From the IMG/VR virus record IMGVR_UViG_3300005611_000006: 64,000 nt of DNA; one strand, given 5' to 3'. Source of the stretch: a virus (lineage: Duplodnaviria; Caudoviricetes). A program made the position numbers and the translations under genes. The notes below the pieces were generated by a model that was not told the origin of the DNA, searched no databases, and saw only the letters and a program-made list of their open reading frames with translations. Of the stretch, positions 1,032 through 13,136 are shown one piece after another. Each line of letters starts with the position of its first letter. Position 1 is the stretch's first letter.

Positions 1032-1222
1032 AAACTTTATTTTTGTTTTCTTTTTTATTTTTTTGGGATACTTTAGATTTGACTAATAAAACTCCTTTAG
1101 AAAAGTTTTTGAATGAGTTTAACAGACAAAATGAAACTGGAGTATATGAAAAGGTAAAATCTTCTTGTTATGTTGAAGGAGAATTTTACAAAGTTTGTCC
1201 TGAATTTGAGGACACTTTCTAA
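1028..1222 (+). CDS. hypothetical protein
   Basis: ORF track; ATGA overlap; stop codon lies inside palindromic element copy 1. Confidence 0.6.
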   Translation: MKTLFLFSFLFFWDTLDLTNKTPLEKFLNEFNRQNETGVYEKVKSSCYVEGEFYKVCPEFEDTF

Positions 1223-1266
1223 ACCGTCCACTCTGCCCCTGACTCTGCCCCACTCTGCCCTATAAT
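1209..1266 (+). promoter_or_regulatory. palindromic element/promoter copy 1
   Basis: AGGACA-N10-CGTCCA (1209-1230), three copies of ACTCTGCCC, TATAAT at 1261. Confidence 0.75.
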
Positions 1267-1290
1267 GAGTAAGTCATCGAAAGGGAATCA

Positions 1291-1515
1291 ATGGAAATCC
1301 TTGAAATTCAAAATTCGTCTGCTGTGAAGAAAGTTTGCTTCGATTATGATGAGAATAAAGTTGGAGTTGCCTATACTTACAAGCAAGACAATTTTTACTT
1401 TTTTGGGTGTAATGACATTGAAGACTTTAAATCAAAAATTGCATCTGCTGAAAGTGTAGGTAAACTTATTTCTCAGAGTAAGAAAAATGGAACACTTCAA
1501 TCTATTGACATTTGA
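1291..1515 (+). CDS. KTSC-domain-like protein
   Basis: N-terminal SSAVKKVCFD..KVGVAY and C-terminal SVGK resemble the KTSC pattern; 74 aa. Confidence 0.55.
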   Translation: MEILEIQNSSAVKKVCFDYDENKVGVAYTYKQDNFYFFGCNDIEDFKSKIASAESVGKLISQSKKNGTLQSIDI

Positions 1516-1533
1516 GTCAATTTGAAATATAGT
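1505..1533 (+). promoter_or_regulatory. sigma70-type promoter for tRNA-Ser
   Basis: TTGACA-N17-TATAGT. Confidence 0.7.
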
Positions 1534-1541
1534 GATCATAT

Positions 1542-1626
1542 GGAGAGGTGACCGAGTGGATTAAGGTATCAGTCTTGAAAACTGCCGATGTGAAAGCATC
1601 CGTGGGTTCGAATCCCACCCTCTCCG
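1542..1626 (+). tRNA. trnS: tRNA-Ser(UGA)
   Basis: GGAGAGG/CCTCTCC acceptor stem, CT-TGA-AA anticodon loop, long variable arm, GGTTCGAATCC T-arm. Confidence 0.95.
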
Positions 1627-1654
1627 TTGACAATTATACTATATGTGGTATAAT
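1627..1654 (+). promoter_or_regulatory. sigma70-type promoter for tRNA-Val and the downstream ncRNA
   Basis: TTGACA-N16-TATAAT. Confidence 0.75.
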
Positions 1655-1663
1655 TGTCTTATC

Positions 1664-1735
1664 GGGTGAATAACTCAGTGGTAGAGTTCCTCCTTTACAC
1701 GGAGGCAGTCGGGGGTTCAAATCCCTCTTCACCCA
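1664..1735 (+). tRNA. trnV: tRNA-Val(UAC)
   Basis: GGGTGAA/TTCACCC acceptor stem, CCTCC-TT-TAC-AC-GGAGG anticodon arm, GGTTCAAATCC T-arm. Confidence 0.95.
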
Positions 1736-1758
1736 CTTGGAGATTGATCATCTCCATA

Positions 1759-1942
1759 GGGTATGACAGAATAGTTGGTGTGGTCAAGCACCCGACAATG
1801 TATAGTAAGGAAGGCTGTGGTGGCCGCCATATTACCTGGAGACAGGAGATATGAGAACTCATACCAAGAGTCCTGAAAGTTCAGAGGAAAACTTACATTA
1901 GTGAGACCCCTCTGTTGAAGGTATAATGTAATCCTTCTACCC
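1759..1942 (+). ncRNA. structured ncRNA with predicted pseudoknots (possibly manA-motif-like)
   Basis: Closing stem GGGTA/TACCC, several internal hairpins, long-range complements GGTATGA/TCATACC and TACATTA/TAATGTA. Lies between tRNAs with no credible ORF. Confidence 0.6.
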
Positions 1943-2013
1943 ACCCACAACCAAATACCTTGGGACGGATTGCCCCAAAATTGCAGGTTGGTTCACCTGC
2001 TTTATATAAACAA

Positions 2014-2090
2014 CGGAACGTAGCTCAGTTTGGTAGAGCACTCGCTTTGGGAGCGAGATGTCGCAGGTTCGAATCCTGTCGTTCCGACCA
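2014..2090 (+). tRNA. trnP: tRNA-Pro(UGG), CCA encoded
   Basis: CGGAACG/CGTTCCG acceptor stem, CTCGC-TT-TGG-GA-GCGAG anticodon arm, ends ACCA. Confidence 0.97.
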
Positions 2091-2104
2091 CTATTATCAT
2101 TTTT

Positions 2105-2284
2105 ATGAAAATTAATCTTTGGTATTCTAAGCATCTTCATCAATGGCGATGGACACTTTCTGATGATCGTGATAAAACTATTCAGGAATCGGGTCAACAA
2201 AATGATCTTCGCAATGCTATGAATGATGTAGCAAAAACTGTTGAATACATTTTAAGTAATTATAATTCTAATGATCCTCTGTAG
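2105..2284 (+). CDS. hypothetical protein (cyanophage-type MKINLWY...QWRWTL)
   Basis: ORF track 2030..2284; start moved to ATG 2105, downstream of tRNA-Pro. Confidence 0.7.
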   Translation: MKINLWYSKHLHQWRWTLSDDRDKTIQESGQQNDLRNAMNDVAKTVEYILSNYNSNDPL

Positions 2285-2346
2285 CACAGCGGTAGTGCAA
2301 ACGACTGTTAATCGTTGGGTCGCAGGTTCGAATCCTGCCGGGGGAG
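2275..2346 (+). tRNA. trnN: tRNA-Asn(GUU)
   Basis: TCCTCTG/CGGGGGA acceptor stem, CT-GTT-AA loop, GGTTCGAATCC T-arm. Confidence 0.95.
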
Positions 2347-2349
2347 TTA

Positions 2350-2430
2350 GCTTCAGTGGCGGAATGGTAGACGCAGCAGACTTAGAATCTGCCGCCAGTT
2401 GGCGTGGAAGTTCAAATCTTCTCTGGAGCA
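2350..2430 (+). tRNA. trnL: tRNA-Leu(UAG)
   Basis: GCTTCAG/CTGGAGC acceptor stem, GCAGA-CT-TAG-AA-TCTGC anticodon arm, variable arm. Confidence 0.93.
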
Positions 2431-2438
2431 CTACTAAA

Positions 2439-2496
2439 AGGACACTTAAAAAACTGGCACAGTCATCATTGATCCCGGCAAAATATGCTCTATACT
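2439..2496 (+). promoter_or_regulatory. palindromic element/promoter copy 2
   Basis: AGGACA-N10-TGGCAC (2439-2460), TTGATC at 2469, TATACT at 2491. Confidence 0.78.
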
Positions 2497-2516
2497 AAGG
2501 AGGTAATCAAACTTGT

Positions 2517-2663
2517 ATGAAACTTTCAACTCAATTTCTTTTAGGACTAATAGTAATCATTGGATTAAATTCATTTCTAGTAAAGAGAGATAGAGATCTA
2601 ATTCGAGCATACGAAGTATGCACTCAGTTCACTTATCATCCAGATTGCCCTTATCATCAATGA
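2517..2663 (+). CDS. small membrane protein (48 aa)
   Basis: Translated by hand (MKLSTQFLLGLIVIIGLNSFLVKRD...); upstream AAGGAGG; ATGA overlap with the next gene. Confidence 0.6.
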   Translation: MKLSTQFLLGLIVIIGLNSFLVKRDRDLIRAYEVCTQFTYHPDCPYHQ

Positions 2664-2860
2664 AAACAAAAAAGAAATTCGTTAATGTTGAGCCTATTTC
2701 AGAAAAAGCAAGGTTTAGGTTTATTACTGAAATGAATTATTTTCACGCTTGTGAGGTTAAAGAAGAGAAAGATGATATGTATTTTGTTTGTTCTTTGAAT
2801 AAGCAATACTATATGTGGTTACCAAAAAAAGGTAATGATCACTGGAAAGTTATAAAATAA
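2660..2860 (+). CDS. hypothetical protein
   Basis: ORF track 2618..2860; start moved to ATG 2660 (MKTKKKFVNVEP). Confidence 0.7.
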   Translation: MKTKKKFVNVEPISEKARFRFITEMNYFHACEVKEEKDDMYFVCSLNKQYYMWLPKKGNDHWKVIK

Positions 2861-2868
2861 TATAAATA
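2861..2868 (+). promoter_or_regulatory. T4-type late (gp55) promoter
   Basis: TATAAATA upstream of ORF 2893. Confidence 0.65.
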
Positions 2869-2892
2869 TTCCTAGAAGAATAAAAAACTAAA

Positions 2893-3399
2893 ATGGATTC
2901 TAATAATCTCATCAAAAGTTTAACAGAAGCATATCTTGATGTTTATACATCTGATGAAGAAATTGGTGAAGCAACTTCTAATGAAACGGTTGAAGAAAAC
3001 AGTGGATATAATATGGATAAAATTAAGAAGGATCCTCTTGCTTCAATGACTCCTGCAACATTCTTGAAAAATAAAGAGGCAGGACAACAATTTGCATCAC
3101 CTAGAAGAAAAGGTCCTGGTGGTGGTAGAATTCCTTCAAGTCTTGCTCCTTCAAGAACTGCTGCAAATGTTGCAGATATTACTAAAGGAAGTGAGAGAAA
3201 CATTTCAAGATCACGTAGACTTCCTACTGATCCAAAGAGAACCAAAATGGTTAAAAAAGATGGTAAGTGGATGAAGGAAGCATTCGATATTGTACTTGAA
3301 CATCTTCTTGATGAAGGTTATGCAGATAATCAAGAAGCAGCAGTAAAAATTATGGCAAATATGAGTGAAGAATGGGTTAATAGCATTCTTGTTGACTGA
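2893..3399 (+). CDS. late-expressed hypothetical protein, possible head internal protein
   Basis: Late promoter upstream. C-terminal FDIVLEHLLDEGYA...IMANMSEEW module of a kind seen in cyanophage proteins. Candidate gp21 cleavage sites (LTE, IGE). Confidence 0.7.
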   Translation: MDSNNLIKSLTEAYLDVYTSDEEIGEATSNETVEENSGYNMDKIKKDPLASMTPATFLKNKEAGQQFASPRRKGPGGGRIPSSLAPSRTAANVADITKGSERNISRSRRLPTDPKRTKMVKKDGKWMKEAFDIVLEHLLDEGYADNQEAAVKIMANMSEEWVNSILVD

Positions 3400-3456
3400 G
3401 GACACTCTATAAAGTGCCACACAGACCCCTCCGGGGGTCTTTTTTTATGCTATAGT
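3399..3456 (+). promoter_or_regulatory. palindromic element/promoter copy 3
   Basis: AGGACA-N10-TGCCAC (3399-3420), TATAGT at 3451. Confidence 0.75.
3423..3446 (+). terminator. intrinsic terminator embedded in promoter copy 3
   Basis: AGACCCC/GGGGTCT stem followed by a T-tract. Confidence 0.8.
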
Positions 3457-3470
3457 TTACTCGTAAACAA

Positions 3471-3704
3471 ATGAGACAGATGACTTCTTTCACACCAGAA
3501 ACAATCTCAGTTGAATTTACTGAATGTGAACTTCAAGATCTTCGTATTGCAATGATGGATTATACGTCAAAGTGGATGAATTATCATTCAGATTGTATTT
3601 TAGGTGTAGCACCAAAAAATATGAGTGAAGAGGGAGCACGTCTTTGTTATGAAGATGCAAGAAAACTCCAAGAACGTATTATTGTACTTTCTAAGAATTT
3701 TTGA
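3471..3704 (+). CDS. hypothetical protein
   Basis: ORF track; first gene after copy 3. Confidence 0.7.
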   Translation: MRQMTSFTPETISVEFTECELQDLRIAMMDYTSKWMNYHSDCILGVAPKNMSEEGARLCYEDARKLQERIIVLSKNF

Positions 3705-3868
3705 TGAAACAAATTAAAATTGAAAGGATCGTAGAAGACATTGAAAGAAACCTTAAAATAGGTAAGAAATCACTTGAGGATAACGAAAAAAGTTATCCTT
3801 ATGTTGCTGGATTCTATGAAGCAACATTGAAAACTATTTCCTTTATGCTTTCTCAGGAGATTAAATGA
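3704..3868 (+). CDS. hypothetical protein (54 aa)
   Basis: Translated by hand (MKQIKIERIVED...YPYVAGFYEATL); TGATG and ATGA coupling. Confidence 0.6.
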   Translation: MKQIKIERIVEDIERNLKIGKKSLEDNEKSYPYVAGFYEATLKTISFMLSQEIK

Positions 3869-4134
3869 CTTTTTCTAATCTTTCTAAGATCAAACCAAAA
3901 CTTCGCACACAAGGTAGGTTATCTGGTAATTTTGGAAAGTCAAAAGTAAAAGCAGGTTCATCATTAAGTCAAATTGGAGTTACTAAAGCAAAAGTCGTGA
4001 AAGTTACAACACAAGACGAATATCTCAATCGCCTTTACACTGCTTTTGATAAAGCAGAAGATTCTAAATTAAAAGGATTTCTTTATGAAGAGATTCGTAA
4101 AATTCTTGTTCAACGAGGTCAGTGGTCAAAATGA
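3865..4134 (+). CDS. hypothetical basic protein
   Basis: ORF track; CAGGAG RBS. Confidence 0.75.
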   Translation: MTFSNLSKIKPKLRTQGRLSGNFGKSKVKAGSSLSQIGVTKAKVVKVTTQDEYLNRLYTAFDKAEDSKLKGFLYEEIRKILVQRGQWSK

Positions 4135-4385
4135 GTTCTATGTCTGAAATTCAAAAAGCATATGATATTCTCAATGCAGTTGTTCAAAAAGAAAATGGAC
4201 TGCACTTGATGGATATGACAATTTATTCATCTGATGTTGATATTATTCAATATGAGATTCTTCCAGTTCTTGAAAGTATTATTGATTATGAACCCTCAGA
4301 TGAAGAATTGTGTGGAGAACCTTCAATTACAATGAATGAAATGCATAGTGCTGCTCATAAGAGGCACATTGAGATGCATTCTTAA
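4131..4385 (+). CDS. hypothetical protein
   Basis: ORF track 4122..4385; ATGA-coupled start at 4131. Confidence 0.7.
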   Translation: MSSMSEIQKAYDILNAVVQKENGLHLMDMTIYSSDVDIIQYEILPVLESIIDYEPSDEELCGEPSITMNEMHSAAHKRHIEMHS

Positions 4386-4394
4386 CAATAATGT

Positions 4395-4452
4395 GTGCCA
4401 CTTGTAGAACTGGCACAGTGTGCTTGACTTGAGGCGGATAATCCCTTATATT
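4395..4452 (+). promoter_or_regulatory. palindromic element/promoter copy 4
   Basis: GTGCCA-CTTGTAGAAC-TGGCAC, then TTGACT-N17-TATATT. Confidence 0.85.
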
Positions 4453-4475
4453 AGGAGGGTAGTCAAGTCAAGCAG

Positions 4476-4613
4476 ATGACTTCAATTCGATTCACTTACG
4501 ACATTCAAACTCAAGAAAAAGTTTATGTTGTGGTTAAGAAGAATAAATATGTTTTAACCAATTCAATTACGAATGCAATTCGTATATCCCAAAATGAAAA
4601 ACAAGAAAATTAA
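4476..4613 (+). CDS. hypothetical protein (45 aa)
   Basis: Translated by hand (MTSIRFTYDIQTQEKVYVVV...); first gene after copy 4. Confidence 0.55.
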   Translation: MTSIRFTYDIQTQEKVYVVVKKNKYVLTNSITNAIRISQNEKQEN

Positions 4614-4734
4614 TAAACCAATAAAAGAAGACAGTGAAATGTCTTTAGGTGAATTAATTGACACTCCAAAGTTCCAAAAAGAACTTTATAAGTGTTCTCC
4701 TTGTAACTGTTCAAAATCTTCTAAACAAGTCTAA
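4594..4734 (+). CDS. hypothetical protein (46 aa)
   Basis: Translated by hand (MKNKKINKPIKED...CSPCNCSKSSKQV). Confidence 0.4.
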   Translation: MKNKKINKPIKEDSEMSLGELIDTPKFQKELYKCSPCNCSKSSKQV

Positions 4735-4768
4735 TCTAAATCTTGATTTTTACAATTCTTATTTCAAA

Positions 4769-5002
4769 ATGAATTTCAAACTTTCTATTCAAGAATACGA
4801 AAAGCAACTTAAGATTGCAAAGAAAAAATATGACAAACTTTGCAAACAATATAAAAGATGTAAAAGTGCTTATCAAGCAGAAATGATTTCAGAAGATTTG
4901 GAGGACACACGTCAAGACGTTATTGAACTTCAAATTATTGTTAATGAGATTAGGCAAGAGAAAAAACTTCACGAATGTGATTCTTCTCAATTTGTTTACT
5001 GA
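4769..5002 (+). CDS. hypothetical coiled-coil protein
   Basis: ORF track 4658..5002; start moved to ATG 4769. Confidence 0.65.
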   Translation: MNFKLSIQEYEKQLKIAKKKYDKLCKQYKRCKSAYQAEMISEDLEDTRQDVIELQIIVNEIRQEKKLHECDSSQFVY

Positions 5003-5024
5003 TCACTTATCTACGAAAAAAATT

Positions 5025-5276
5025 ATGAATGACATTAATCTTTCTGGTGTGTTTCTAACTGCTGAAGAGCACGGTTGTGTTTATACAGTTGACTCTGAAG
5101 GTGAATTGTTTTATACACCATTATATCAAGATGGTAGTGCAAATCTTGAAGAGTTTGATTTTGTAGATTTTGAAGAAAGTGATGCTGGTGATGAACAACT
5201 TGAAGAAATTCAAGAAGTTCTTTGTAAAATGATGCAAGTTGCAGGTCTTTATTTTAGACCTGCTGTGCCAGTCTAA
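5025..5276 (+). CDS. acidic hypothetical protein
   Basis: ORF track 4923..5276; start moved to ATG 5025; stop codon inside element copy 5. Confidence 0.7.
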   Translation: MNDINLSGVFLTAEEHGCVYTVDSEGELFYTPLYQDGSANLEEFDFVDFEESDAGDEQLEEIQEVLCKMMQVAGLYFRPAVPV

Positions 5277-5322
5277 AAACTGGCACAAAACGCTTGCCAA
5301 GGCACCCAGATGGTGCTATATT
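5265..5322 (+). promoter_or_regulatory. palindromic element/promoter copy 5
   Basis: GTGCCA-N10-TGGCAC, then TTGCCA-N17-TATATT, GCACC/GGTGC hairpin in the spacer. Confidence 0.85.
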
Positions 5323-5349
5323 AAAAAAGTCGATCAAAGGAGTTATTCA

Positions 5350-5496
5350 ATGTCTTCCAATGAAATGGTTCTTCACGATGATTATGAATCATTTGCCAGT
5401 TATCTTGGTGTCGATTACGACGACTATTATGAAATGATCAATGATTTGAATCTTGAATCTGAAGAGATAGAGATTGAATACTCCTTGACTATTTGA
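5350..5496 (+). CDS. very acidic small protein
   Basis: ATG 5350 after AAGGAG; rich in D, E and Y. Confidence 0.7.
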   Translation: MSSNEMVLHDDYESFASYLGVDYDDYYEMINDLNLESEEIEIEYSLTI

Positions 5497-5530
5497 TTAA
5501 ATAATAATAGAACATTTTCCTCTTGGAACA

Positions 5531-5656
5531 ATGAGCACTCCTAATTGGATTCATAATTCTGGAAAGAAAAAGAATCCCCGAGGAGTGTCTAAGGGGAAAC
5601 TTAAATCTCGCAAACAATCTCTTAATCATTTCAAAAGAAAGTACAAATCAAAATGA
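5531..5656 (+). CDS. small basic protein (41 aa)
   Basis: Translated by hand (MSTPNWIHNSGKKKNPRGVSKGKLKSRK...); ATGA overlap with the next gene. Confidence 0.6.
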   Translation: MSTPNWIHNSGKKKNPRGVSKGKLKSRKQSLNHFKRKYKSK

Positions 5657-6093
5657 CTGAATTTGCAGATTTTGTTGCTACAAAACCCAACACAACTTTA
5701 CGAATGGAAAAGGTGATTGACTTGATTGAAAAGTTTTGCGATGTTCTTCGCACAAACTATCAAGAGTACGCAATCTATCAGCATCGTCGTCATATTCTAC
5801 AAAATGATAATGTAGAGTATCATCAAAAGCAAATTGATGAACTTTGTGAAGGTGAAGGTGTGGATAAGTTTGTGTATGAAAAAGGTCGTAAGTACGCAAA
5901 GATTATTCATATCACTAATGCTGGTAATCGAAGTGCTCACGCATTCGTAGATATGAAAACAGGTGATGTATATAAATCTGCAAGTTGGAAATCTCCTGCA
6001 AAGGGAATTCGATATAATCTTCTAGATGAAAAATCTAGAACTGAAATGTATAAGCGTGCAGACTGGGCAGGTTCTTATCTTTATAACAAATGA
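5653..6093 (+). CDS. conserved phage hypothetical protein
   Basis: Motif GRKYAKI...AHAFVD..TGDVYKSASWKSPAKG.RYNL, familiar from phage proteins. Confidence 0.8.
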   Translation: MTEFADFVATKPNTTLRMEKVIDLIEKFCDVLRTNYQEYAIYQHRRHILQNDNVEYHQKQIDELCEGEGVDKFVYEKGRKYAKIIHITNAGNRSAHAFVDMKTGDVYKSASWKSPAKGIRYNLLDEKSRTEMYKRADWAGSYLYNK

Positions 6094-6278
6094 AAGAAGA
6101 ATTCTATGATGGTCTAGAAATCAACTATCAAGGTCAAAATGGCACTGTACGTTTTGTTTGTGATTCTTATATTACAATGTGCATTCATTTAGATGAATTA
6201 AGATTCAGAGATGTTTGTATTGTAATACCTTCAGAAAGATACTCTGAAATTAAACTCAAAAAACAATCTGACAAATGA
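6090..6278 (+). CDS. hypothetical protein
   Basis: ORF track; ATGA coupling at both ends. Confidence 0.7.
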   Translation: MKEEFYDGLEINYQGQNGTVRFVCDSYITMCIHLDELRFRDVCIVIPSERYSEIKLKKQSDK

Positions 6279-6775
6279 CTCCTGAACAAAAGTTTCAACA
6301 ACTCTTTGAAGAAATGTATTCGCTTTGCGATGAACAGGGTTGGGGTGATCCTTTTTCTTACGCAAGATCTAGAGAAATTCATATGGCAGGAGTTCTGAAG
6401 CATCAAATTGCAAAAGAATATAGTGGTGCTGATGCTTATGACGAAGAAGGTGGAGCAGAATATAAATCTACTATTGCAAAAACTATAAATGCAACCTATA
6501 ATGGAATTAGTGTTCAAGACACTTGGGAAGATCAAGAAAGATATTTGATAGAAGATAAAATTGGTAAATATAAGAACCACTATTATGCACGCTATGAAGG
6601 TGGTAAAATTGTAGAAGTTTGGAAGTTAGATTGTAATGATGTACTTGCTATTATTCTTCCTAAAGCAAAGAAACAATATCCTAAGAAAAAGAATGGTAAT
6701 GCAAAAGATCCTCGTATCGGTGTTACTATCTCTAAGACAGAAATTTATTCAGTTGGAACCTGTATTTTTGGATGA
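6275..6775 (+). CDS. putative PD-(D/E)xK restriction-endonuclease-like protein
   Basis: Catalytic-like arrangement RE...GADA-x6-AEYKS; immediately upstream of a methyltransferase. Confidence 0.55.
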   Translation: MTPEQKFQQLFEEMYSLCDEQGWGDPFSYARSREIHMAGVLKHQIAKEYSGADAYDEEGGAEYKSTIAKTINATYNGISVQDTWEDQERYLIEDKIGKYKNHYYARYEGGKIVEVWKLDCNDVLAIILPKAKKQYPKKKNGNAKDPRIGVTISKTEIYSVGTCIFG

Positions 6776-6778
6776 ACT

Positions 6779-7327
6779 ATGATAAACTCTAAAAAAATTA
6801 TGTATTCCTCAGGAAATAATGATGAATCATATACTCCTGATTATGGTGTAAAACCAATTCTAAAATATATCCCTAAAGATGCTGTTGTTTGGTGTCCATT
6901 CGATACTGAAGAAAGCGAATTTGTAAAACAAATTGGGGAGCAGAATGAAGTAATATATTCTCATATTCAAGATGGATCTGACTTTTTAACTTATGAACCA
7001 GAGTTTCATAAGTGGGATGTAATTGTATCAAATCCACCTTTTACAAATAAAAGAAAATACTTTGAACGAGCATTATCTTTTAACAAACCATTTGCATTAA
7101 TTATGACAAATACTTGGTTGAATGATTCTGCACCAAAGCAAATATTTAAGGATAGAGATCTACAACTTCTGATGTTTGATAAAAGGATGAAATTTAATAA
7201 TCCAGATGGTAGACCTAACGATAAGATTACATTTAGTAGTAGTTATTATTGTTGGAATTTTCTTCCGAAACAAATCATAATGGAAAATCTCGATGTGCCA
7301 ACTAAGAAAGCGGCACAAACCACTTGA
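6779..7327 (+). CDS. DNA N6-adenine methyltransferase (small phage type)
   Basis: DESYTP, VWCPFD, DFL and DVIVSNPPF (motif IV). Confidence 0.8.
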   Translation: MINSKKIMYSSGNNDESYTPDYGVKPILKYIPKDAVVWCPFDTEESEFVKQIGEQNEVIYSHIQDGSDFLTYEPEFHKWDVIVSNPPFTNKRKYFERALSFNKPFALIMTNTWLNDSAPKQIFKDRDLQLLMFDKRMKFNNPDGRPNDKITFSSSYYCWNFLPKQIIMENLDVPTKKAAQTT

Positions 7328-7352
7328 CTTCTCAGTCAATCCTCTGTATAGT
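7295..7352 (+). promoter_or_regulatory. palindromic element/promoter copy 6
   Basis: GTGCCA-N10-CGGCAC, then TTGACT-N17-TATAGT. Confidence 0.85.
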
Positions 7353-7374
7353 TACGAAGTAATCAAAAAACAAA

Positions 7375-7509
7375 ATGCACGAATCCACACTCGATCTTTT
7401 TTGTGACCAAGACGATGATAAATTTGCTGAAGAGTTTTGGTTGGAAATTGAAAGGAAAGCAGCAGAACTAGAAGTTACTGTTGATTATTATATGATGGAG
7501 TTTATGTGA
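7375..7509 (+). CDS. small acidic protein (44 aa)
   Basis: Translated by hand (MHESTLDLFCDQDDDKFAEEFWLEIERKAAELEVTVDYYMMEFM). Confidence 0.7.
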   Translation: MHESTLDLFCDQDDDKFAEEFWLEIERKAAELEVTVDYYMMEFM

Positions 7510-7516
7510 TTCCATT

Positions 7517-7587
7517 GCCCTTATAGTTAAAAGGTATAACAGTTGCCTTGTAAGCATCAATTTCCAGTTCAATTCTGGATGAGGGCT
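7517..7587 (+). tRNA. trnT: tRNA-Thr(UGU)
   Basis: GCCCTTA/TGAGGGC acceptor stem, GTTA/TAAC D-stem, CT-TGT-AA loop, CCAG-TTCAATT-CTGG T-arm. One U-U mismatch in the anticodon stem. Confidence 0.85.
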
Positions 7588-7603
7588 TTTACTTAACAAA
7601 ACT

Positions 7604-7660
7604 GTGCCACCTGTAGAACTGGCACAATAAATGAGCACAGATCCCAAAGTGCTCTATATT
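7604..7660 (+). promoter_or_regulatory. palindromic element/promoter copy 7
   Basis: GTGCCA-N10-TGGCAC, GAGCAC/GTGCTC hairpin, TATATT at 7655. Confidence 0.8.
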
Positions 7661-7705
7661 GGTTAAGTGGTTGAGAGAGACCACACTCAAACTTTATTCT
7701 TTTCT

Positions 7706-8914
7706 ATGCCACTTCTTTCTTATCAGAAAACTGCTGTTGCTCAGATCAAAAAGCATAAGAAAGGAACTATCTTCATTCCTACTGGTGGTGGTAAAACATA
7801 TGTCTTTATGACAGATGCAAAGAATCGTATTCAAGAATCTAATTCTCCTCTCACTATTATTGTTGTTGCTCCTCGTATTCTTTTGTCTGAGCAACTTGCA
7901 TCTGAGTTTCAAGAGTTTCTAAAAGATGAAGAGATTTCAATTACTCACGTTCACTCTGGTCATAAGAATGGTACAACAAAACCACACGTAATTGCAACTT
8001 ATGATGCTGCTATAAAAGCATTGAATAAACATCATATTATATTTACAACTTACAAATCTCTTGAGAAGGTGAATGAGTCTGGCATTCCTATGAATGTTGT
8101 TTATTTTGATGAAGCACATAATGCAGTTAAACCAGCAACTCAAGTTGGTGTTGCACATACTTCTCAAGTCTCAGATCATACTTACTTCTTCACTGCAACT
8201 CCAAAGATTGCAATGAATCAGACAAATATCTATGGTTCTAACATTGTCTCGGTGTCTGCTACTGAATTGATAAACGCGGGAACTATTCTTTCTCCTAAAG
8301 TCGAAACTTATGAGTTCAACGAAATACGAACGAAAGAGAATGCGCCACTTGTCGATGCAAGTAATATCATTGGGATTCTGAGTGAAGTCGAGGAGGGGAA
8401 TCCTAAAGTTCTGGTTGCAGCACCATCAACCAAAATTATTTGGGAATCATTGTCACAGACTGCATTGCTTGGTGATCTGAATGCAATGGGTTACACAGTT
8501 ATGCACATCACCTCAAAGCACGGTGCATATATCGACAAGAAAAAAGTAAGTCGTCAAGTATTCTTTGAAAAACTGACAGAGTATGGAAATGATCCCACAA
8601 AGAAAATCATTGTGTTTCACTATTCAATCCTGTCAGAAGGTATCAATGTGCCCGGATTGACTCATTGCATTATGCTTAGGAATCTTCCGACAGTTGAGAT
8701 GTTGCAAACAATCGGTAGGGTCATTCGAGTTGCAAAGGAAGACAGAGATGCTATTGAGAAGAGAAAGATTCAACCAGGGCAATTTGAGTTCTACAAAAAG
8801 TCGGAGGGCAAAATTATCATTCCAGTATCTAAAGGATACGGAGCAAACATTCAACGGAACATTCAGAATCTTGTCGATGCGGTATTTGTACAAGGTCAAA
8901 CTGTAATCTCTTAA
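7706..8914 (+). CDS. SF2 DEAH helicase/ATPase (type III restriction Res-like)
   Basis: YQ (Q motif), PTGGGKT Walker A, DEAH, FTATP, LSEGINVP and QTIGRVIR. Start moved to ATG 7706. Confidence 0.88.
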   Translation: MPLLSYQKTAVAQIKKHKKGTIFIPTGGGKTYVFMTDAKNRIQESNSPLTIIVVAPRILLSEQLASEFQEFLKDEEISITHVHSGHKNGTTKPHVIATYDAAIKALNKHHIIFTTYKSLEKVNESGIPMNVVYFDEAHNAVKPATQVGVAHTSQVSDHTYFFTATPKIAMNQTNIYGSNIVSVSATELINAGTILSPKVETYEFNEIRTKENAPLVDASNIIGILSEVEEGNPKVLVAAPSTKIIWESLSQTALLGDLNAMGYTVMHITSKHGAYIDKKKVSRQVFFEKLTEYGNDPTKKIIVFHYSILSEGINVPGLTHCIMLRNLPTVEMLQTIGRVIRVAKEDRDAIEKRKIQPGQFEFYKKSEGKIIIPVSKGYGANIQRNIQNLVDAVFVQGQTVIS

Positions 8915-8929
8915 TTTTCCGTAATTCAA

Positions 8930-9232
8930 ATGATACAAGAATGGAAATGTATGGTGAAAACACCATCAGGTCGAATTCAAACAATGTTTGTTGATGCTTA
9001 TGACATTGAGGATGCAACTATTGCTGCGGAATCTCAAACTGGAGGAGAAGCAATTAATGTAACTCCGCAATTTACTTCTAGTGATGATGCGGAATATTCT
9101 TCAGATTTTAGTGGAAGTGGATTACTTGGATTGATAATTATTGGACTTTGCTTCTACTTTTGGAAGTGGTTTCTAATGATTGGTGCAATTGGATTCATTT
9201 TATTCCTAATTTATCATTTCTGGGATGAATGA
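8930..9232 (+). CDS. hypothetical membrane protein
   Basis: ORF track; C-terminal hydrophobic helices. Confidence 0.75.
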   Translation: MIQEWKCMVKTPSGRIQTMFVDAYDIEDATIAAESQTGGEAINVTPQFTSSDDAEYSSDFSGSGLLGLIIIGLCFYFWKWFLMIGAIGFILFLIYHFWDE

Positions 9233-9241
9233 GAAGAATGT

Positions 9242-9299
9242 GTGCCACCTGTAGAACCGTCCCTAACACCCCCCACAACCCCCTCAGGGGTGCTATGAT
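9242..9299 (+). promoter_or_regulatory. palindromic element/promoter copy 8
   Basis: GTGCCA-N10-CGTCCC, C-rich -35 zone, ACCCC/GGGGT hairpin, TGCTATGAT extended -10. Confidence 0.8.
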
Positions 9300-9323
9300 T
9301 ACGAAGTAATCAATCAGGGATGT

Positions 9324-9512
9324 ATGTTCATCATTTGTCCAGTTTCTTTTGATCTATGTGATGCAGAATGGTATGATGATATTGATGATGCATCTGAAAA
9401 TGCACTTGAATGGAGTGTTGATCTTCAAGGATCTAATGTAAAAGTTTACGAAGCAATTCTTCGTAATGATGAAACTTACTCTTTCAATTGTCTAAAGTCT
9501 ATTTGTGCTTGA
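9324..9512 (+). CDS. acidic hypothetical protein
   Basis: ORF track; first gene after copy 8. Confidence 0.7.
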   Translation: MFIICPVSFDLCDAEWYDDIDDASENALEWSVDLQGSNVKVYEAILRNDETYSFNCLKSICA

Positions 9513-9513
9513 A

Positions 9514-9717
9514 ATGAACATTTTTCCTCTTGATGATCAACTGGTAATGTTAATTGACCGACTGAATAATGCGGTCAATGTTTGTTATGAAGCACCAGAA
9601 ATTGAAGATCAAGGTTATGCTTATGCGACAGGTTATTCACGATCTGCGATGACTGATGTGGCAGATAGTTTAAGTAAAATTGTTAAACAAATCCGAGAGG
9701 ACAATGCAGAATCTTGA
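9514..9717 (+). CDS. hypothetical protein
   Basis: ORF track 9505..9717; ATG at 9514; GYAYATGYSRSAM motif. Confidence 0.7.
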   Translation: MNIFPLDDQLVMLIDRLNNAVNVCYEAPEIEDQGYAYATGYSRSAMTDVADSLSKIVKQIREDNAES

Positions 9718-9877
9718 AATGTTGATGCAACGTGAACAATTAATGGAAGACATTCATTGTATCATTGAATCAAACTTTGGTGGGGTTGAATACAAAAAGT
9801 TGACGGATCATATCATCGATGATGTAATATGTCAACTTTGTGATGCTGTCTGTAAAAACTTTCCAATTAACAACTGA
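9704..9877 (+). CDS. hypothetical protein
   Basis: ORF track 9680..9877; ATG at 9704 after GAGG. Confidence 0.65.
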   Translation: MQNLEMLMQREQLMEDIHCIIESNFGGVEYKKLTDHIIDDVICQLCDAVCKNFPINN

Positions 9878-10122
9878 TGAACTACACACTAAAAGATCTT
9901 CAAAATCGTGTCAACAATCTGATTGCACAACAGGGTGAAGATGCACCTGTCGCGTGGTGGATTTATACCAATGAGGATGTTTTTACTATTGATGACAATG
10001 GTAATGAACAATATAAACCACTTGATGTTTGTGAAAAAGTCTTATCAAATTTGTGGGACATTGATTACATTCATACTGTAATTGTTGATGCTATTGATGA
10101 AGAACTTCGAGAGACTAATTAA
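9877..10122 (+). CDS. hypothetical protein
   Basis: ORF track; TGATG coupling. Confidence 0.75.
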   Translation: MNYTLKDLQNRVNNLIAQQGEDAPVAWWIYTNEDVFTIDDNGNEQYKPLDVCEKVLSNLWDIDYIHTVIVDAIDEELRETN

Positions 10123-10128
10123 CATCTT

Positions 10129-10186
10129 GTGCCACCTGTAGAAGTGGCACTAACAACCCCCACAGTGCCCCCTGAGGCGCTATAAT
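10129..10186 (+). promoter_or_regulatory. palindromic element/promoter copy 9
   Basis: GTGCCA-N10-TGGCAC, C-rich -35 zone, AGTGCC/GGCGCT hairpin, TATAAT at 10181. Confidence 0.85.
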
Positions 10187-10210
10187 TACGAAGTAATCAA
10201 TCAGACAGCA

Positions 10211-10888
10211 ATGGATCGCTCTCAAGTCATCGCCAAGATTCAATCAATTCTGAAACTTAAGAATGGAACTACATTCGATGGTGAGGCAGATGCTGCCGCT
10301 AAAATGATTGATAAACTTTGTAAACAGTATGGTGTCACTGTTAATGAAGCAACTGAAGTACAAGTTTCTGATGAAGAGTTTTCTTCATTCAAGAGAATCA
10401 ATCAAGCACACGCAACAATCCTGAATGCAATTGCATCTTTTTATGATGCAAAAGCATATCTTAAGAAGAGTGGAGATCTTAAATCTCTTCAGGTGATTGG
10501 TAGTGAGGGTCAGCAAATTCAGGTTAAACTTTACTTTGATTATCTGATTCAGGTAATGGAGAAAGAAGCAGAAGTTGCATATAAAGCAGAGAAAGTCATT
10601 GCTGATATTCAAGGAACTAAAGTATCACGTAGTTTCAAACTTAACTTTAGAAAGGCATTTGCAGATAAGATCTCCATTAGACTTGATGATATGAAAAAGC
10701 AAGAGGGTAGAGTTCACGAAGATAAAGAAGCAGTTTCCAAGAAATTATCTACTATGCGATTTGGAAATGTAAAGAGAGGAACATCTGCTAACGGTGCAGG
10801 TGCGGCATCTGGTAATTCTGTTGGTGCTGGTGTTTCTCTTCATAGGCAAACATCTGGAAGTGTTACAAAACAACTGTGTGGGGTATAA
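10211..10888 (+). CDS. DUF2786-like protein
   Basis: N-terminal IAKIQSILKL...EADAAAKMIDKLCKQYGV pattern and C-terminal SF..AF...I helical region. Confidence 0.7.
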   Translation: MDRSQVIAKIQSILKLKNGTTFDGEADAAAKMIDKLCKQYGVTVNEATEVQVSDEEFSSFKRINQAHATILNAIASFYDAKAYLKKSGDLKSLQVIGSEGQQIQVKLYFDYLIQVMEKEAEVAYKAEKVIADIQGTKVSRSFKLNFRKAFADKISIRLDDMKKQEGRVHEDKEAVSKKLSTMRFGNVKRGTSANGAGAASGNSVGAGVSLHRQTSGSVTKQLCGV

Positions 10889-10933
10889 TTACCCTATTAT
10901 CCTATAAATAAATTTTTTCAATTTACAAGAATT

Positions 10934-11125
10934 ATGACTCCTCAAAAAATTCAAGAATACAAAGATTATGTTATTTCAGTTTTCAATGAAGATGTAAAAA
11001 ATCTTCTTGATGAATTTATTGAAAATGATCCAGAACTTAATCAACTCAATTACGATGATGTTGTTGATTATGTAAATGCTAATCTTAATAGTAAAGTAGA
11101 ATGGGTTGATCAAGTCTCACAATGA
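10934..11125 (+). CDS. hypothetical protein (late promoter upstream)
   Basis: ORF track; TATAAATA at 10903-10910. Confidence 0.7.
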   Translation: MTPQKIQEYKDYVISVFNEDVKNLLDEFIENDPELNQLNYDDVVDYVNANLNSKVEWVDQVSQ

Positions 11126-11135
11126 GACCGACCGT

Positions 11136-11193
11136 GTGCCAGTCCACAAACCGGCACACAACCCTCCCATAACGCCCCCTGAGGCGCTATGAT
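11136..11193 (+). promoter_or_regulatory. palindromic element/promoter copy 10
   Basis: GTGCCA-N10-CGGCAC, CGCC/GGCG hairpin, TATGAT at 11188. Confidence 0.82.
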
Positions 11194-11216
11194 TACAAGG
11201 TAATCAATCAACCACT

Positions 11217-11399
11217 ATGGCAACTCGATACAGTGTCCTCTGTCCTTCACAACCTCAAGAATCTGAATCTGTATTAACATTAGATCAGGCGTGGGATGTA
11301 TGTTATGATCTTGCTGAAGAGTTTGGTTATGCTGAGGTGAGAGATCCTAATGGTGATTACATTGGAGATTGCGGTAATCCTGCATCATTCTTTAACTGA
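11217..11399 (+). CDS. acidic hypothetical protein
   Basis: ORF track; first gene after copy 10. Confidence 0.7.
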   Translation: MATRYSVLCPSQPQESESVLTLDQAWDVCYDLAEEFGYAEVRDPNGDYIGDCGNPASFFN

Positions 11400-11420
11400 T
11401 TCAATCAACCCATTAACAAA

Positions 11421-11663
11421 ATGACTACTTCTACACTTTCAACTAAAACCTATCAAGGTTGGGCAAATTACGAGACTTGGAATGTCGCACTTTATATTGG
11501 TAATCATTATGGACTCTATAATCAAGCAAGGAGATCCAAAACCTATCAAGATCTTGTGAACTATTTGTATAAGTGTGGATCAACTGAAACTCCAGATGGT
11601 GTTGAATGGACTGATACTAAGATTGATGGTATTGCTATTAATGAGATGATGAAAGATCTCTGA
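11421..11663 (+). CDS. conserved phage hypothetical protein
   Basis: YQGWANYETWNVALYI...TPDGV motif, familiar from phage proteins. Confidence 0.8.
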   Translation: MTTSTLSTKTYQGWANYETWNVALYIGNHYGLYNQARRSKTYQDLVNYLYKCGSTETPDGVEWTDTKIDGIAINEMMKDL

Positions 11664-11729
11664 TTGATGAATTGACCTGATGATGTCATTAAACTCATCA
11701 TATTGTACACACTAACTTCTTCTTTTATT

Positions 11730-11885
11730 ATGACTTCCATTAATCTTGATCTCACCCGTGAAGTTGCTATTGATATGCTTCGCAAGGGAAATACTGGTAA
11801 TGAGATTCTTCAGATCCTGAATGCTATTGTTCCTGATCAAGATGATGCACCTAATGAAGGTACACTGGAACCCATTGAGTTCTGA
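11730..11885 (+). CDS. hypothetical protein
   Basis: ORF track 11703..11885; ATG at 11730. Confidence 0.65.
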   Translation: MTSINLDLTREVAIDMLRKGNTGNEILQILNAIVPDQDDAPNEGTLEPIEF

Positions 11886-11892
11886 TACCCTT

Positions 11893-11949
11893 GTGCCACC
11901 TATACAAGTGTCACAATAAATGAGCACAGACCTCAAAATGGTCTATAGT
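11893..11949 (+). promoter_or_regulatory. palindromic element/promoter copy 11
   Basis: GTGCCA-N10-TGTCAC, AGACC/GGTCT hairpin, TATAGT at 11944; near-duplicate of copy 7. Confidence 0.8.
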
Positions 11950-12000
11950 GTATAGGTGGTTGAGAGAGACCACACTTTTGTTCTTTATTCCTTCTCATCA

Positions 12001-12177
12001 ATGACTACTTCACAACGAATGGAACGTCAATTCTTTATTCGATTCATCACACTTGTTAATGATGTGCAAGGATATACTCAACTGCCTTCTGAGATTAATT
12101 CTTCGCGGAAGTCAACTTGGATGAAACAAGTAAAGAATCCAAAAATGAAGAAAGATGCACTGTCTTCCGTGAAATAA
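12001..12177 (+). CDS. hypothetical protein
   Basis: ORF track 11956..12177; ATG at 12001. Confidence 0.65.
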   Translation: MTTSQRMERQFFIRFITLVNDVQGYTQLPSEINSSRKSTWMKQVKNPKMKKDALSSVK

Positions 12178-12222
12178 TGGTATAAATGTTAACATATTAA
12201 AAATATGTTAAAAAACCATTAC

Positions 12223-12302
12223 TTATTCCTCTTAATGTCTCTATTATGTCTCTTAATGCCTGTTAATGTCTCTATTATTCCTCTTAATGCCTGTTAATGT
12301 CT
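12223..12302. repeat. degenerate tandem repeat (about 11-12 bp units, CTCTTAATG[T/C]C-like)
   Basis: ttattcctcttaatgtctctattatgtctcttaatgcctgttaatgtctctattattcctcttaatgcctgttaatgtct. Confidence 0.85.
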
Positions 12303-12326
12303 TCACTTATTGTGATCTTAGCCAGC

Positions 12327-12355
12327 ATAATACCACAAAAACTTCGTGGTGTCAA
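12327..12355 (-). promoter_or_regulatory. leftward sigma70-type promoter
   Basis: Minus strand reads TTGACA-N17-TATTAT. Confidence 0.55.
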
Positions 12356-12362
12356 GAGAACT

Positions 12363-12384
12363 GGGACACTTCACAAAGTGGCAC
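12363..12384 (+). promoter_or_regulatory. palindromic element copy 12 (no clear -10 at the usual distance)
   Basis: GGGACA-N10-TGGCAC. Confidence 0.75.
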
Positions 12385-12392
12385 ATAATAAG

Positions 12393-12435
12393 TTTTCCAC
12401 AACCCTGTGGAAAACTATTAGTAACCTGTGGAAAA
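12393..12435. promoter_or_regulatory. three cyanobacterial-type DnaA boxes (TTTTCCACA)
   Basis: TTTTCCACA at 12393-12401; TGTGGAAAA at 12406-12414 and 12427-12435. Confidence 0.65.
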
Positions 12436-12452
12436 CTTATTAACTCATAGGG

Positions 12453-12482
12453 TTGACAATAACCACACAGTTAGATTATAAT
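12453..12482 (+). promoter_or_regulatory. rightward sigma70-type promoter into non-coding DNA
   Basis: TTGACA-N18-TATAAT. Confidence 0.6.
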
Positions 12483-12773
12483 AACAGTGAAATAACAGCA
12501 GTATTTTAGACCCCCCCCTATTCGTTCATTCTGAGTATTATGAATCAACAACAGTTCGTGTTCTTTATACGTTCTCTAAGGTGTCTATAATCGTCTACAA
12601 TCATACTGAGAGGTTATTCGAGTATAGTTCGTTGTTTTATTATTAGTTCGTGTTATAGACGATTCTGAGAGGAGTTATAACTTTAGAGTTTTCTGGGAGT
12701 TTATAATTGTGTAAGTTATATAATTATAATTAACTTTACCCGATGTATTATTATTATAAAATCTGAAAGGACA

Positions 12774-12838
12774 GTCTATTAGTAATACAATCTAATCCAA
12801 GTATTACTAATAGACAGTCAGGTTAGTATTAGTAATAC
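12774..12838. repeat. 15-bp perfect inverted repeat plus a third partial copy
   Basis: GTCTATTAGTAATAC (12774-12788) / GTATTACTAATAGAC (12801-12815); GTATTAGTAATAC at 12826-12838. Confidence 0.85.
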
Positions 12839-13072
12839 ATTGGCAGTTTCTATTAATAATTCGTGTTCGTTCATTGACAGTTATACCGGGGGGTTTGTGT
12901 TAATTATTATGGGTAATGCGATATAAAAATGCCAAACATCCCTAACCTACAGAGGTGACAAATCGAGAGAGTGATTTCGAGTCAATAAAAAAAATTTTTC
13001 CCAAAATTTTTTAGAGAAAACCTTTTTTGGAGAAAAAAATTTCCGTGGTAAAAAACCTATGAGGGTATTCGA

Positions 13073-13101
13073 TTGACAAGAGATAAATAATCGAGTATCA
13101 T
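13073..13101 (+). promoter_or_regulatory. sigma70-type promoter with an overlapping late-type ATAAATA
   Basis: TTGACA-N17-TATCAT. Confidence 0.65.
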
Positions 13102-13136
13102 TGAGTTGGTACAATATAACCTAATTATTACTTAAA

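Follow-up and report, generated by a model that had tools for sequence, protein, structure and literature searches.

The stretch of DNA analysed here (the window) comprises 64,000 nucleotides of the IMG/VR virus record IMGVR_UViG_3300005611_000006 and, judged by its genes, belongs to a T4-like cyanomyovirus. From 13.1 kb on it carries the core genes for baseplate, tail, terminase, sheath, portal and capsid, which resemble those of Synechococcus and Prochlorococcus myoviruses with about 73-77% nucleotide identity (the best matches being S-SRM01, with 77%, and S-SKS1). The first 12.4 kb hold about 35 small open reading frames (ORFs), six tRNAs, one manA RNA, a helicase, a methyltransferase-like ORF and several DUF proteins, and it is in this region that a 22-bp palindromic element, in the following referred to as the dyad, occurs twelve times. 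We consider it moderately probable, from the sequence comparisons reported below, that these are eleven working copies and one orphan dyad of a composite cyanomyovirus promoter that heads small accessory ('early-type') gene groups, with the host regulator PlmA as its most likely activator.

A preliminary description of the window had listed twelve copies of the dyad with the consensus GTGCCA-N10-TGGCAC, and all twelve were found at their places (Table 1), all on the + strand. It had noticed none among the core genes; indeed, a matrix derived from the twelve copies scores no more than 13.3 bits anywhere in 12,400-64,000, compared with 19-36 bits for the copies themselves. With each copy left out of the matrix in turn, the scores range from 10.5 to 34 bits, copy 1209 being the lowest. 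Searching the whole window for GTGCCA-N10-TGGCAC with up to three mismatches yielded 16 matches, including ten of the twelve copies, while shuffled versions of the window gave 5.6 +/- 2.2 matches and reached 16 in none of 100 shuffles. The variant arm AGGACA is present in copies 1209 and 3399. One part of the original consensus has to be revised, namely the free central spacer of ten nucleotides: YY occupies positions 8-9 and AA positions 14-15 throughout the twelve copies, so that the arms are 9 bp long each, GTGMCASTT and AASTGKCAC, with only 4 bp between them.

The position of the dyad relative to a putative -10 box is likewise as first described. A TAnnnT hexamer follows the dyad after a gap of 29-30 nt (corresponding to a start 30-31 nt after the element in the former counting) in 11 of the 12 copies, the exception being 12363. 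Such a hexamer is met at this gap at 4.4% of random positions in the region, and the real boxes are mostly TATAAT, TATAGT or TATGAT. When the -10 hexamer is placed at -12 to -7, the dyad extends from about -64 to -43 and its centre lies near -53.5, in agreement with the value of about -53 given before. A recognisable -35-like hexamer was found in only about five of the twelve copies, as opposed to the -10 box in eleven. The observation that upstream ORFs run into the element was also borne out, the stops at 1222, 3399, 5276 and 7327 being located inside or at it.

The comparison with related phages that had been proposed as a check revealed that the element recurs in five isolates and at no fewer than 120 IMG/VR loci. 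In these phages the unit likewise reads GTGMCASTT-N4-AASTGKCAC, a gap of 29-32 nt and TATAAT. Scanning IMG/VR with the exact pattern gave at least 120 loci, and many contigs possess 4-9 copies in the same layout. When up to two mismatches were allowed, isolate genomes contained 2 (Syn9), 5 (S-PM2), about 11 (P-SSM2), about 10 (S-SRM01) and about 4 (S-SKS1) copies, compared with 0-1 for a reversed control. Restriction of the element to one region was tested in the window and in one relative of 171 kb (89% complete), in which all of the approximately 15 sites found are confined to 153-168 kb. Applied to about 1 Mb of IMG/VR loci, the window matrix detected 623 sites, 430 of which have a strong -10 box at a gap of 29-32 nt (44, 255, 113 and 18 at 29, 30, 31 and 32 nt, respectively), while any other gap accounts for about three. 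The spacer between dyad and -10 box is C-rich throughout the family and carries almost no information; a match of at least 4/6 to the -35 hexamer is present in 31% of the family spacers versus 9% after shuffling. The rigidity of the gap to the -10 box points to a transcriptional constraint, and by its distribution and layout the dyad unit is a promoter class of cyanobacterial T4-like phages and not a local oddity.

Host Yfr2 promoters and their regulator

A counterpart of the dyad occurs in the hosts, upstream of the Yfr2 RNA genes. These genes were located with the Rfam model Cyano-1 (RF01701), whose matches begin with the Yfr2 5' motif GUGAGGAG; the 42 loci comprise 13 from five marine Synechococcus genomes and 29 from a broad selection of 61 Cyanobiaceae genomes, among them low-GC genomes of 1.6-1.9 Mb taken as Prochlorococcus. 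Within the 3 kb of each locus (about 6,100 positions, both strands), the phage matrix found its single best match 57-63 nt before the RNA model in 32 cases out of 42, and in 27 of the 42 a TAnnnT hexamer stands 29-32 nt past this match, loci of the high-light Prochlorococcus type being ambiguous. Examples of such host dyads are GTGACGGCTGTGGAACTGACAC, CGGACAGCTGAGCAACCGGCAC and AGGACAGTTCAAATAGCGCCAC. Their left arm (GTGMCAGTT or rGGACAGTT) is conserved and their right arm is weak, and a comparison of column frequencies identifies GTGMCAGTT / AACTGKCAC as the arm common to phage dyads and host Yfr2 sites. The hosts must accordingly have a protein of their own for this site, given that 32 of 42 loci show the same arm, and often the same dyad, in an identical register. 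The reading that hosts have no such site, which had been taken from a strict palindrome scan, was overturned by the matrix scan of the Yfr2 loci and abandoned.

A candidate for this protein is known from Prochlorococcus MED4, where PMM1637, a GntR-family homologue of PlmA, was recovered in a pull-down with the yfr2 promoter (Lambrecht et al. 2018, PMC6191309). In electrophoretic mobility shift assays the yfr2 and yfr4 promoters were shifted, which required the motif and residue R50, and the wild-type protein raised GFP expression from both promoters in E. coli (PMC6191309). The associated element CGRE1 was described as 21 nt long in low-light strains and Synechococcus and 22 nt long in high-light strains, with GTTG or GTTA and an inverted repeat thereof 13-14 nt apart (PMC6191309), and is found nowhere else in the MED4 genome (PMC6778093). 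The form of CGRE1 used here, the everted CAAC-TGKCAC-N1-2-GTGMCA-GTTG, was derived from this published description together with the host loci. Some host Yfr2 promoters carry an additional inverted arm upstream which produces precisely this form, in accordance with the description of CGRE1, and the best matches to it in the five Synechococcus genomes (0-3 mismatches) all adjoin Yfr2 genes. The layout varies by host clade: at five Synechococcus Yfr2 loci (L215, L218, L219, L221 and L222) an everted CTGGCAC-A-GTGCCAG is located beside the -10 box, at about -39 to -19, and a weak phage-like dyad farther upstream, i.e. three arms in a row.

Each of the five Synechococcus genomes possesses one full GntR gene (334-468 aa). 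Sites in host genomes are weak and number 1-6 per genome, compared with 10-20 near-consensus sites per phage genome. Host PlmA (PMM1637) is the best candidate for an activator of the phage dyads, and the most economical reading of these data would be that the phage promoters are strengthened and re-arranged copies of the host site, served by host PlmA.

Alternatives and the proposed mechanism

The dyad could instead act as a nucleic-acid hairpin, i.e. as a terminator, an attenuator or a processing site of the upstream transcript like the stem-loop of the early-promoter stem-loop (PeSL) cassettes, or a cruciform recombination site. Its layout would suit such a role, as a PeSL likewise presents a stem-loop followed by an early promoter among ORFans (PMC2839356, PMC4122927); upstream ORFs do stop in or at the dyad, and perfect copies could form a stem of 6-7 bp. 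However, 671 distinct oriented sites display no compensatory variation: complementary pairs at mirrored positions occur with the frequency expected of independent columns (observed 0.71 versus expected 0.69 at positions 2/21, and 0.59 versus 0.56 at 4/19), and positions 7/16 even avoid complementarity (0.33 versus 0.48), with G..G and C..C as the commonest combinations. Five of the twelve window copies join a GTGCCA-type arm to a GGGACA- or GTGTCA-type arm, whereby the stem is broken, the sequence of the arms is itself conserved beyond mere pairing, and no T-run was found 3' of the palindrome in the window copies. Unit 3 contains a separate canonical terminator between its dyad and its -10 box (3423-3447, + strand; GACCCC-TCCG-GGGGTC, with a GC-rich stem of 7 bp, a 4-nt loop and T7), the only T-run terminator-like hairpin within a promoter unit on that unit's strand, which would halt read-through of ORF 2893-3399 just ahead of the next start; termination, where wanted, is thus a separate module. 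Together, the lack of covariation, the broken stems, the missing T-run and the separate terminator argue for two independently read arms and a dimeric DNA-binding protein, and for a dyad that behaves as a protein site, which makes a hairpin very unlikely. Similarly discarded was a sigma-54 promoter, in which the right arm TGGCAC would be the -24 box, as no TTGC is present at the right distance; cyanobacteria are not known to have RpoN. The protein in question might be encoded by the phage, either as an activator delivered with the virion or as an early-made repressor that shuts the early promoters. We regard this as unlikely: the same arm recurs in the same register in the 32 of 42 host Yfr2 promoters, a search of five cyanomyovirus genomes that was aimed at GntR domains alone found none, and a screen confined to the ten largest early-region ORFs revealed no DNA-binding domain. 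A phage protein would, on the other hand, account for a near-perfect palindrome that is abundant in phages (5-20 per genome) and essentially absent from the five host genomes at up to two mismatches, for phage sites far nearer to the consensus than any host site, and for an arrangement of arms that differs from published CGRE1.

The palindrome had also been proposed to serve as a recombination platform for the capture and shuffling of genes, with breakpoints in gene order at its copies. For comparison we used two IMG/VR contigs, G001 (L126 + L114 + L127) and G002 (L069), whose identity to the window amounts to 85-95% over the greater part of what aligns in this region. G001 is devoid of window positions 10204-11152, which correspond precisely to the pair of ORFs that separates elements 10129 and 11136, and retains a single chimeric element: its dyad and the dyad-proximal part of its spacer stem from the 10129 copy, its leader and the gene behind it from the 11136 copy. 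The crossover took place within a parental overlap of about 57 bp (11153-11210), which reaches from the end of dyad 11136 through spacer, -10 box and leader; being downstream of the dyad and in the overlap of the units, it fits ordinary homologous recombination. In G002 only ORF 10934-11125 is missing (indel 10892-11133); the right breakpoint abuts dyad 11136, and this junction recurs in contigs of three metatranscriptome samples. The indels 5500-5652 and 9516-9730, by contrast, have no element at either end, and a distant relative (L077) harbours homologues of window genes with changed neighbours that have not moved as element-bounded blocks. The platform is thus retained in a weak, PeSL-like sense: the repeats do act as recombination substrates, as in the two-gene deletion by element-element crossover in G001, whereas three further gene-sized differences between the three genomes do not have an element at each end, and other indels disregard the elements. 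A stronger version, which sees in the elements above all a dedicated system for capturing and shuffling genes, with cassette boundaries of a site-specific or integron-like kind, and gives promoter function second place, appears highly improbable to us. It would gain from the cassette-sized deletion exactly between two elements and from the indel that abuts an element edge in a variant seen in three metatranscriptome samples, but loses by the position of the G001 crossover, the two indels without flanking element, the rearranged neighbourhoods in L077, the absence of a recombinase among the ten largest early-region ORFs screened, and the fixed dyad-to-10 distance of 29-32 nt, which is a transcriptional constraint; no sign of a dedicated site-specific capture system was present in the genomes compared.

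An activator-bound promoter, the core of the regulon suggested in the preliminary description, is the best reading of the dyad unit because of the rigid spacing to the -10 box, the scarcity of -35 boxes, the independence of the arms and the presence of the same site in host Yfr2 promoters; promoter activity, early timing, PlmA binding and activation are what we infer. Each unit would consist of a 22-bp two-armed protein site (GTGMCASTT-N4-AASTGKCAC, at about -64 to -43), a free C-rich spacer of 29-30 bp that usually has no -35 box, and a -10 box which would be recognised by host RNA polymerase carrying the primary sigma factor. The missing -35 contact is most likely made good by a dimeric activator on the dyad, and this activator is most likely PlmA, the host's single GntR-family regulator (PMM1637 in Prochlorococcus MED4). 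By offering near-consensus copies of a host site, the units could turn their genes on immediately after injection, with no phage protein needed. Finally, units of about 60-90 bp in direct orientation would allow homologous recombination to delete or move intervening genes from time to time, as PeSL does in coliphage RB49. A more far-reaching proposal, which we advance tentatively and would rate somewhat below even chances, is that T4-like cyanophages put their entire immediate-early programme under PlmA, the only GntR regulator of the host, through near-consensus, re-arranged copies of the Yfr2 site before every early gene group, the same units also being PeSL-like recombination substrates by which accessory genes are added and removed. 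If true, early phage expression would read the nitrogen and light status of the host, PlmA being a partner of PII-PipX signalling.

Several points weigh against PlmA-dependent early promoters. The strict pattern GTGCCAS-N6-AAS-TGGCAC, with up to two mismatches, has 0-4 matches in the five complete marine Synechococcus genomes versus 10-26 for the reversed control, and host sites score at most 17 bits compared with 19-36 for phage sites. No match to the everted ACTGGCAC-A-GTGCCAGT was found in the window at up to three mismatches, and with the phage arms in the opposite order to CGRE1 and no everted form in the window, it is not to be assumed that PlmA binds the arms as the phages arrange them. 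The published start of CGRE1, 55-57 nt before the start site, could not be brought into line with the coordinates obtained here for all of the host clades. As to transcription, seven metatranscriptome runs cover parts of 7000-12500, four of which were examined; their contigs are short unitigs that end at the repeated promoter (e.g. at 10174, 10203 and 11181), with DNA carry-over possible, and because they break at the repeat they reveal neither starts nor strands. The early timing proposed for the dyad-headed genes follows what Doron et al. 2016 reportedly found for early genes.

The individual units and their surroundings

Table 1. Dyad units of the window, with the positions of their parts and the genes that they head

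Unit	Span	Strand	Dyad	-10 box	Other parts	Genes headed
1	1209..1266	+	AGGACACTT-N4-AACCGTCCA, 1209-1230	TATAAT, 1261-1266		ORF 1291-1515 and tRNA/manA RNA block
2	2439..2496	+	2439-2460	TATACT, 2491-2496		ORFs 2517-3399
3	3399..3456	+	3399-3420	TATAGT, 3451-3456	terminator hairpin 3423-3447	ORFs 3471-4385
4	4395..4452	+	4395-4416, perfect-armed	TATATT, 4447-4452	-35-like TTGACT at 4424	ORFs 4476-5276
5	5265..5322	+	5265-5286, with stop of upstream ORF	TATATT, 5317-5322	-35-like TTGCCA	six ORFs (5350 to 7327), among them a DNA methyltransferase-like ORF and one for a DUF7717 protein
6	7295..7352	+	7295-7316	TATAGT, 7347-7352	-35-like TTGACT	ORF 7375-7509 and tRNA-Thr
7	7604..7660	+	7604-7625	TATATT, 7655-7660 (gap 29 nt)	leader hairpin 7667-7684	SF2 helicase ORF 7706-8914 and ORF 8930-9232
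8	9242..9299	+	9242-9263, right arm degenerate (CCGTCCC)	TATGAT, 9294-9299		ORFs 9324-10122
9	10129..10186	+	10129-10150	TATAAT, 10181-10186	left partner of the G001 crossover	ORF 10211-10888 (DUF2786/DUF7168) and ORF 10934-11125
10	11136..11193	+	11136-11157	TATGAT, 11188-11193	right partner of the G001 crossover	ORFs 11217-11885
11	11893..11949	+	11893-11914	TATAGT, 11944-11949 (gap 29 nt)	leader hairpin 11956-11973	ORF 12003-12177
Dyad 12	12363..12384	+	GGGACACTT-N4-AAGTGGCAC	no TAnnnT at usual distance		no ORF behind

The dyad of unit 1 is the weakest of the twelve by the matrix and of host-like type, and the stop codon of ORF 1028-1222 lies inside it. The overlap between coding and regulatory sequence is complete in unit 6, whose dyad is situated within the 3' end of the methyltransferase-like ORF 6779-7327 (+ strand; N6-adenine methyltransferase-like, phrog_799, with an NPPF motif): this ORF reads through the element, its last 11 codons are dyad 7295, and its stop falls in the -35 region of the promoter.

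Some of the units share leader sequences. Units 7 and 11 have alike spacers (AATAAATGAGCACAGA...) and an identical 18-nt hairpin, GTGGTTGAGAGAGACCAC (+ strand), about 7 nt past the -10 box; the same type of spacer plus leader is present in several IMG/VR contigs (L014, L031, L049, L068, L069 and L114). By its position the hairpin would be the 5' end of the transcript, and it may be a 5' stabilising stem-loop. In four other units the leader TACGAAGTAATCAATCA directly follows the -10 box (7353-7370, 9300-9317, 10187-10204 and 11194-11211, + strand), with which it forms the inverted repeat ATTAC-GAA-GTAAT. This leader is widespread in the IMG/VR copies (as 'tataattacaaggtaatcaa') and lies within the shared stretch of the G001 crossover.

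Besides the dyad units, the + strand contains four near-perfect, dyad-free promoters of host type (TTGACA-N16-18-TATAAT/TATAGT/TATCAT), located at 1505-1533, 1627-1654, 12453-12482 and 13073-13101. Two of them lie directly 5' of tRNA-Ser and tRNA-Val, one in a long non-coding stretch and one before ORF 13137, the first ORF of the structural region. By their sequence, these TTGACA/TATAAT promoters are a second promoter class of the window, distinct from the dyad class. Between tRNA-Val and tRNA-Pro, a manA RNA motif was recognised at 1738-1947 on the + strand (Rfam RF01745, 82.7 bits, E 3e-20); several Synechococcus phages (S-B43, S-B05, S-H68 and RB11-B) carry this stretch of 210 bp, unannotated, with an identity of about 93%.

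The long non-coding stretch, 12180-13136, comprises about 950 bp without a + strand ORF of at least 60 aa and is conserved at about 85% in the relatives G001 and G002. It harbours five copies of ATKCCTSTTAATGYCT with an alternating spacing of 21 and 10 bp (12225-12302), a perfect 16-bp inverted repeat (12386-12401 / 12427-12442) and an imperfect 37-nt inverted repeat (12752-12837), and metatranscriptome contigs carry a variant in place of 12221-12291. Dyad 12 is thus followed by the 16-bp inverted repeat and then by a separate consensus promoter, TTGACA-18-TATAAT, the one at 12453-12482. The ATKCCTSTTAATGYCT repeats are iteron-like, so that the stretch may serve as an origin or else encode a non-coding RNA.

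Comparison with known systems

Doron et al. 2016 reportedly described a novel regulatory element, other than a standard sigma-70 promoter, that controls the early genes of Syn9 and P-TIM40. Host-like promoters are said to drive the middle genes in that study, the elements to be abundant and conserved in T4-like cyanophages, and no binding factor to have been named. The dyad unit is probably identical with this element: both occur in the same phage group and are abundant among T4-like cyanophages, here in isolates and IMG/VR loci, and the TTGACA-N16-18-TATAAT promoters of the window (before tRNA genes, at 12453 and at 13073) fit the 'host-like promoters' reported there. The guess in the preliminary description that the motif is already known in cyanophages is thus probably right. 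No description of the dyad was found in the full-text literature searched, outside of which Doron et al. 2016 lies, and the promoters predicted by Sullivan 2010 were confined to the BPROM, T4-late, Pho and NtcA types, with no palindrome mentioned. The promoter class itself appears to be already published, so that the window contributes one more instance with some supporting tests and not a discovery; the testable part is the link to PlmA, seen here at the level of sequence. In practical terms, the element is a marker of early-type accessory regions in uncultured cyanophage contigs, and the G001 crossover illustrates how such regions gain and lose genes.

PeSL cassettes are known from T4-like coliphages and vibriophages, namely RB49/phi1, PST/T4 and nt-1/KVP40 (Arbiol 2010, PMC2839356; Comeau 2014, PMC4122927). 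They resemble the dyad units in that repeated composite units head groups of ORFans in a hyperplastic region, and in that recombination between neighbouring copies deletes the genes between them, with the crossover in the promoter/leader part (RB49/phi1 there, G001 here). The stem-loop of a PeSL, however, is a structure-defined terminator (GN-loop-CN) beside a full sigma-70 promoter, whereas the palindrome of the window is defined by sequence, exhibits no covariation and no T-run, keeps a rigid distance to the -10 box and mostly has no -35 box. As far as its sequence goes, the element therefore resembles PeSL in its genomic role and fails the defining stem-loop/terminator feature.

In its architecture the element resembles an activator-dependent promoter, such as the middle promoters of T4 served by MotA or class I promoters of the CRP type, which likewise have a good -10 box, lack a -35 box and bind their protein at a constant distance upstream. 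The MotA box differs in being asymmetric and centred at -30, as opposed to the dyad centre near -53.5, and it depends on MotA and AsiA, phage proteins that are missing from cyanomyoviruses (PMC2984593); the CRP site is unlike the dyad in both sequence and spacing. Cyanomyoviruses are devoid of the T4 proteins Alt, ModA/B, MotA and AsiA that reprogramme the host RNA polymerase, so that the start of the phage programme is a mechanistic question. A promoter class modelled on the Yfr2/PlmA site points to one concrete factor of the host and would tie phage take-over to the nitrogen and light signalling of the host.

With CGRE1 the dyad shares the same 9-bp arm upstream of a -10 box, and the regulator of CGRE1 acts positively. 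Most Yfr2 loci of the Synechococcus/Cyanobium type carry a phage-like dyad 29-32 nt before TAnnnT, just as in the phages. The two differ in the order of the arms, everted in CGRE1 (AACTGKCAC-N1-2-GTGMCAGTT) and GTGMCASTT-N4-AASTGKCAC in the phages, and in that host sites are weak, with 1-6 per genome, while phage sites are near-consensus and more numerous.

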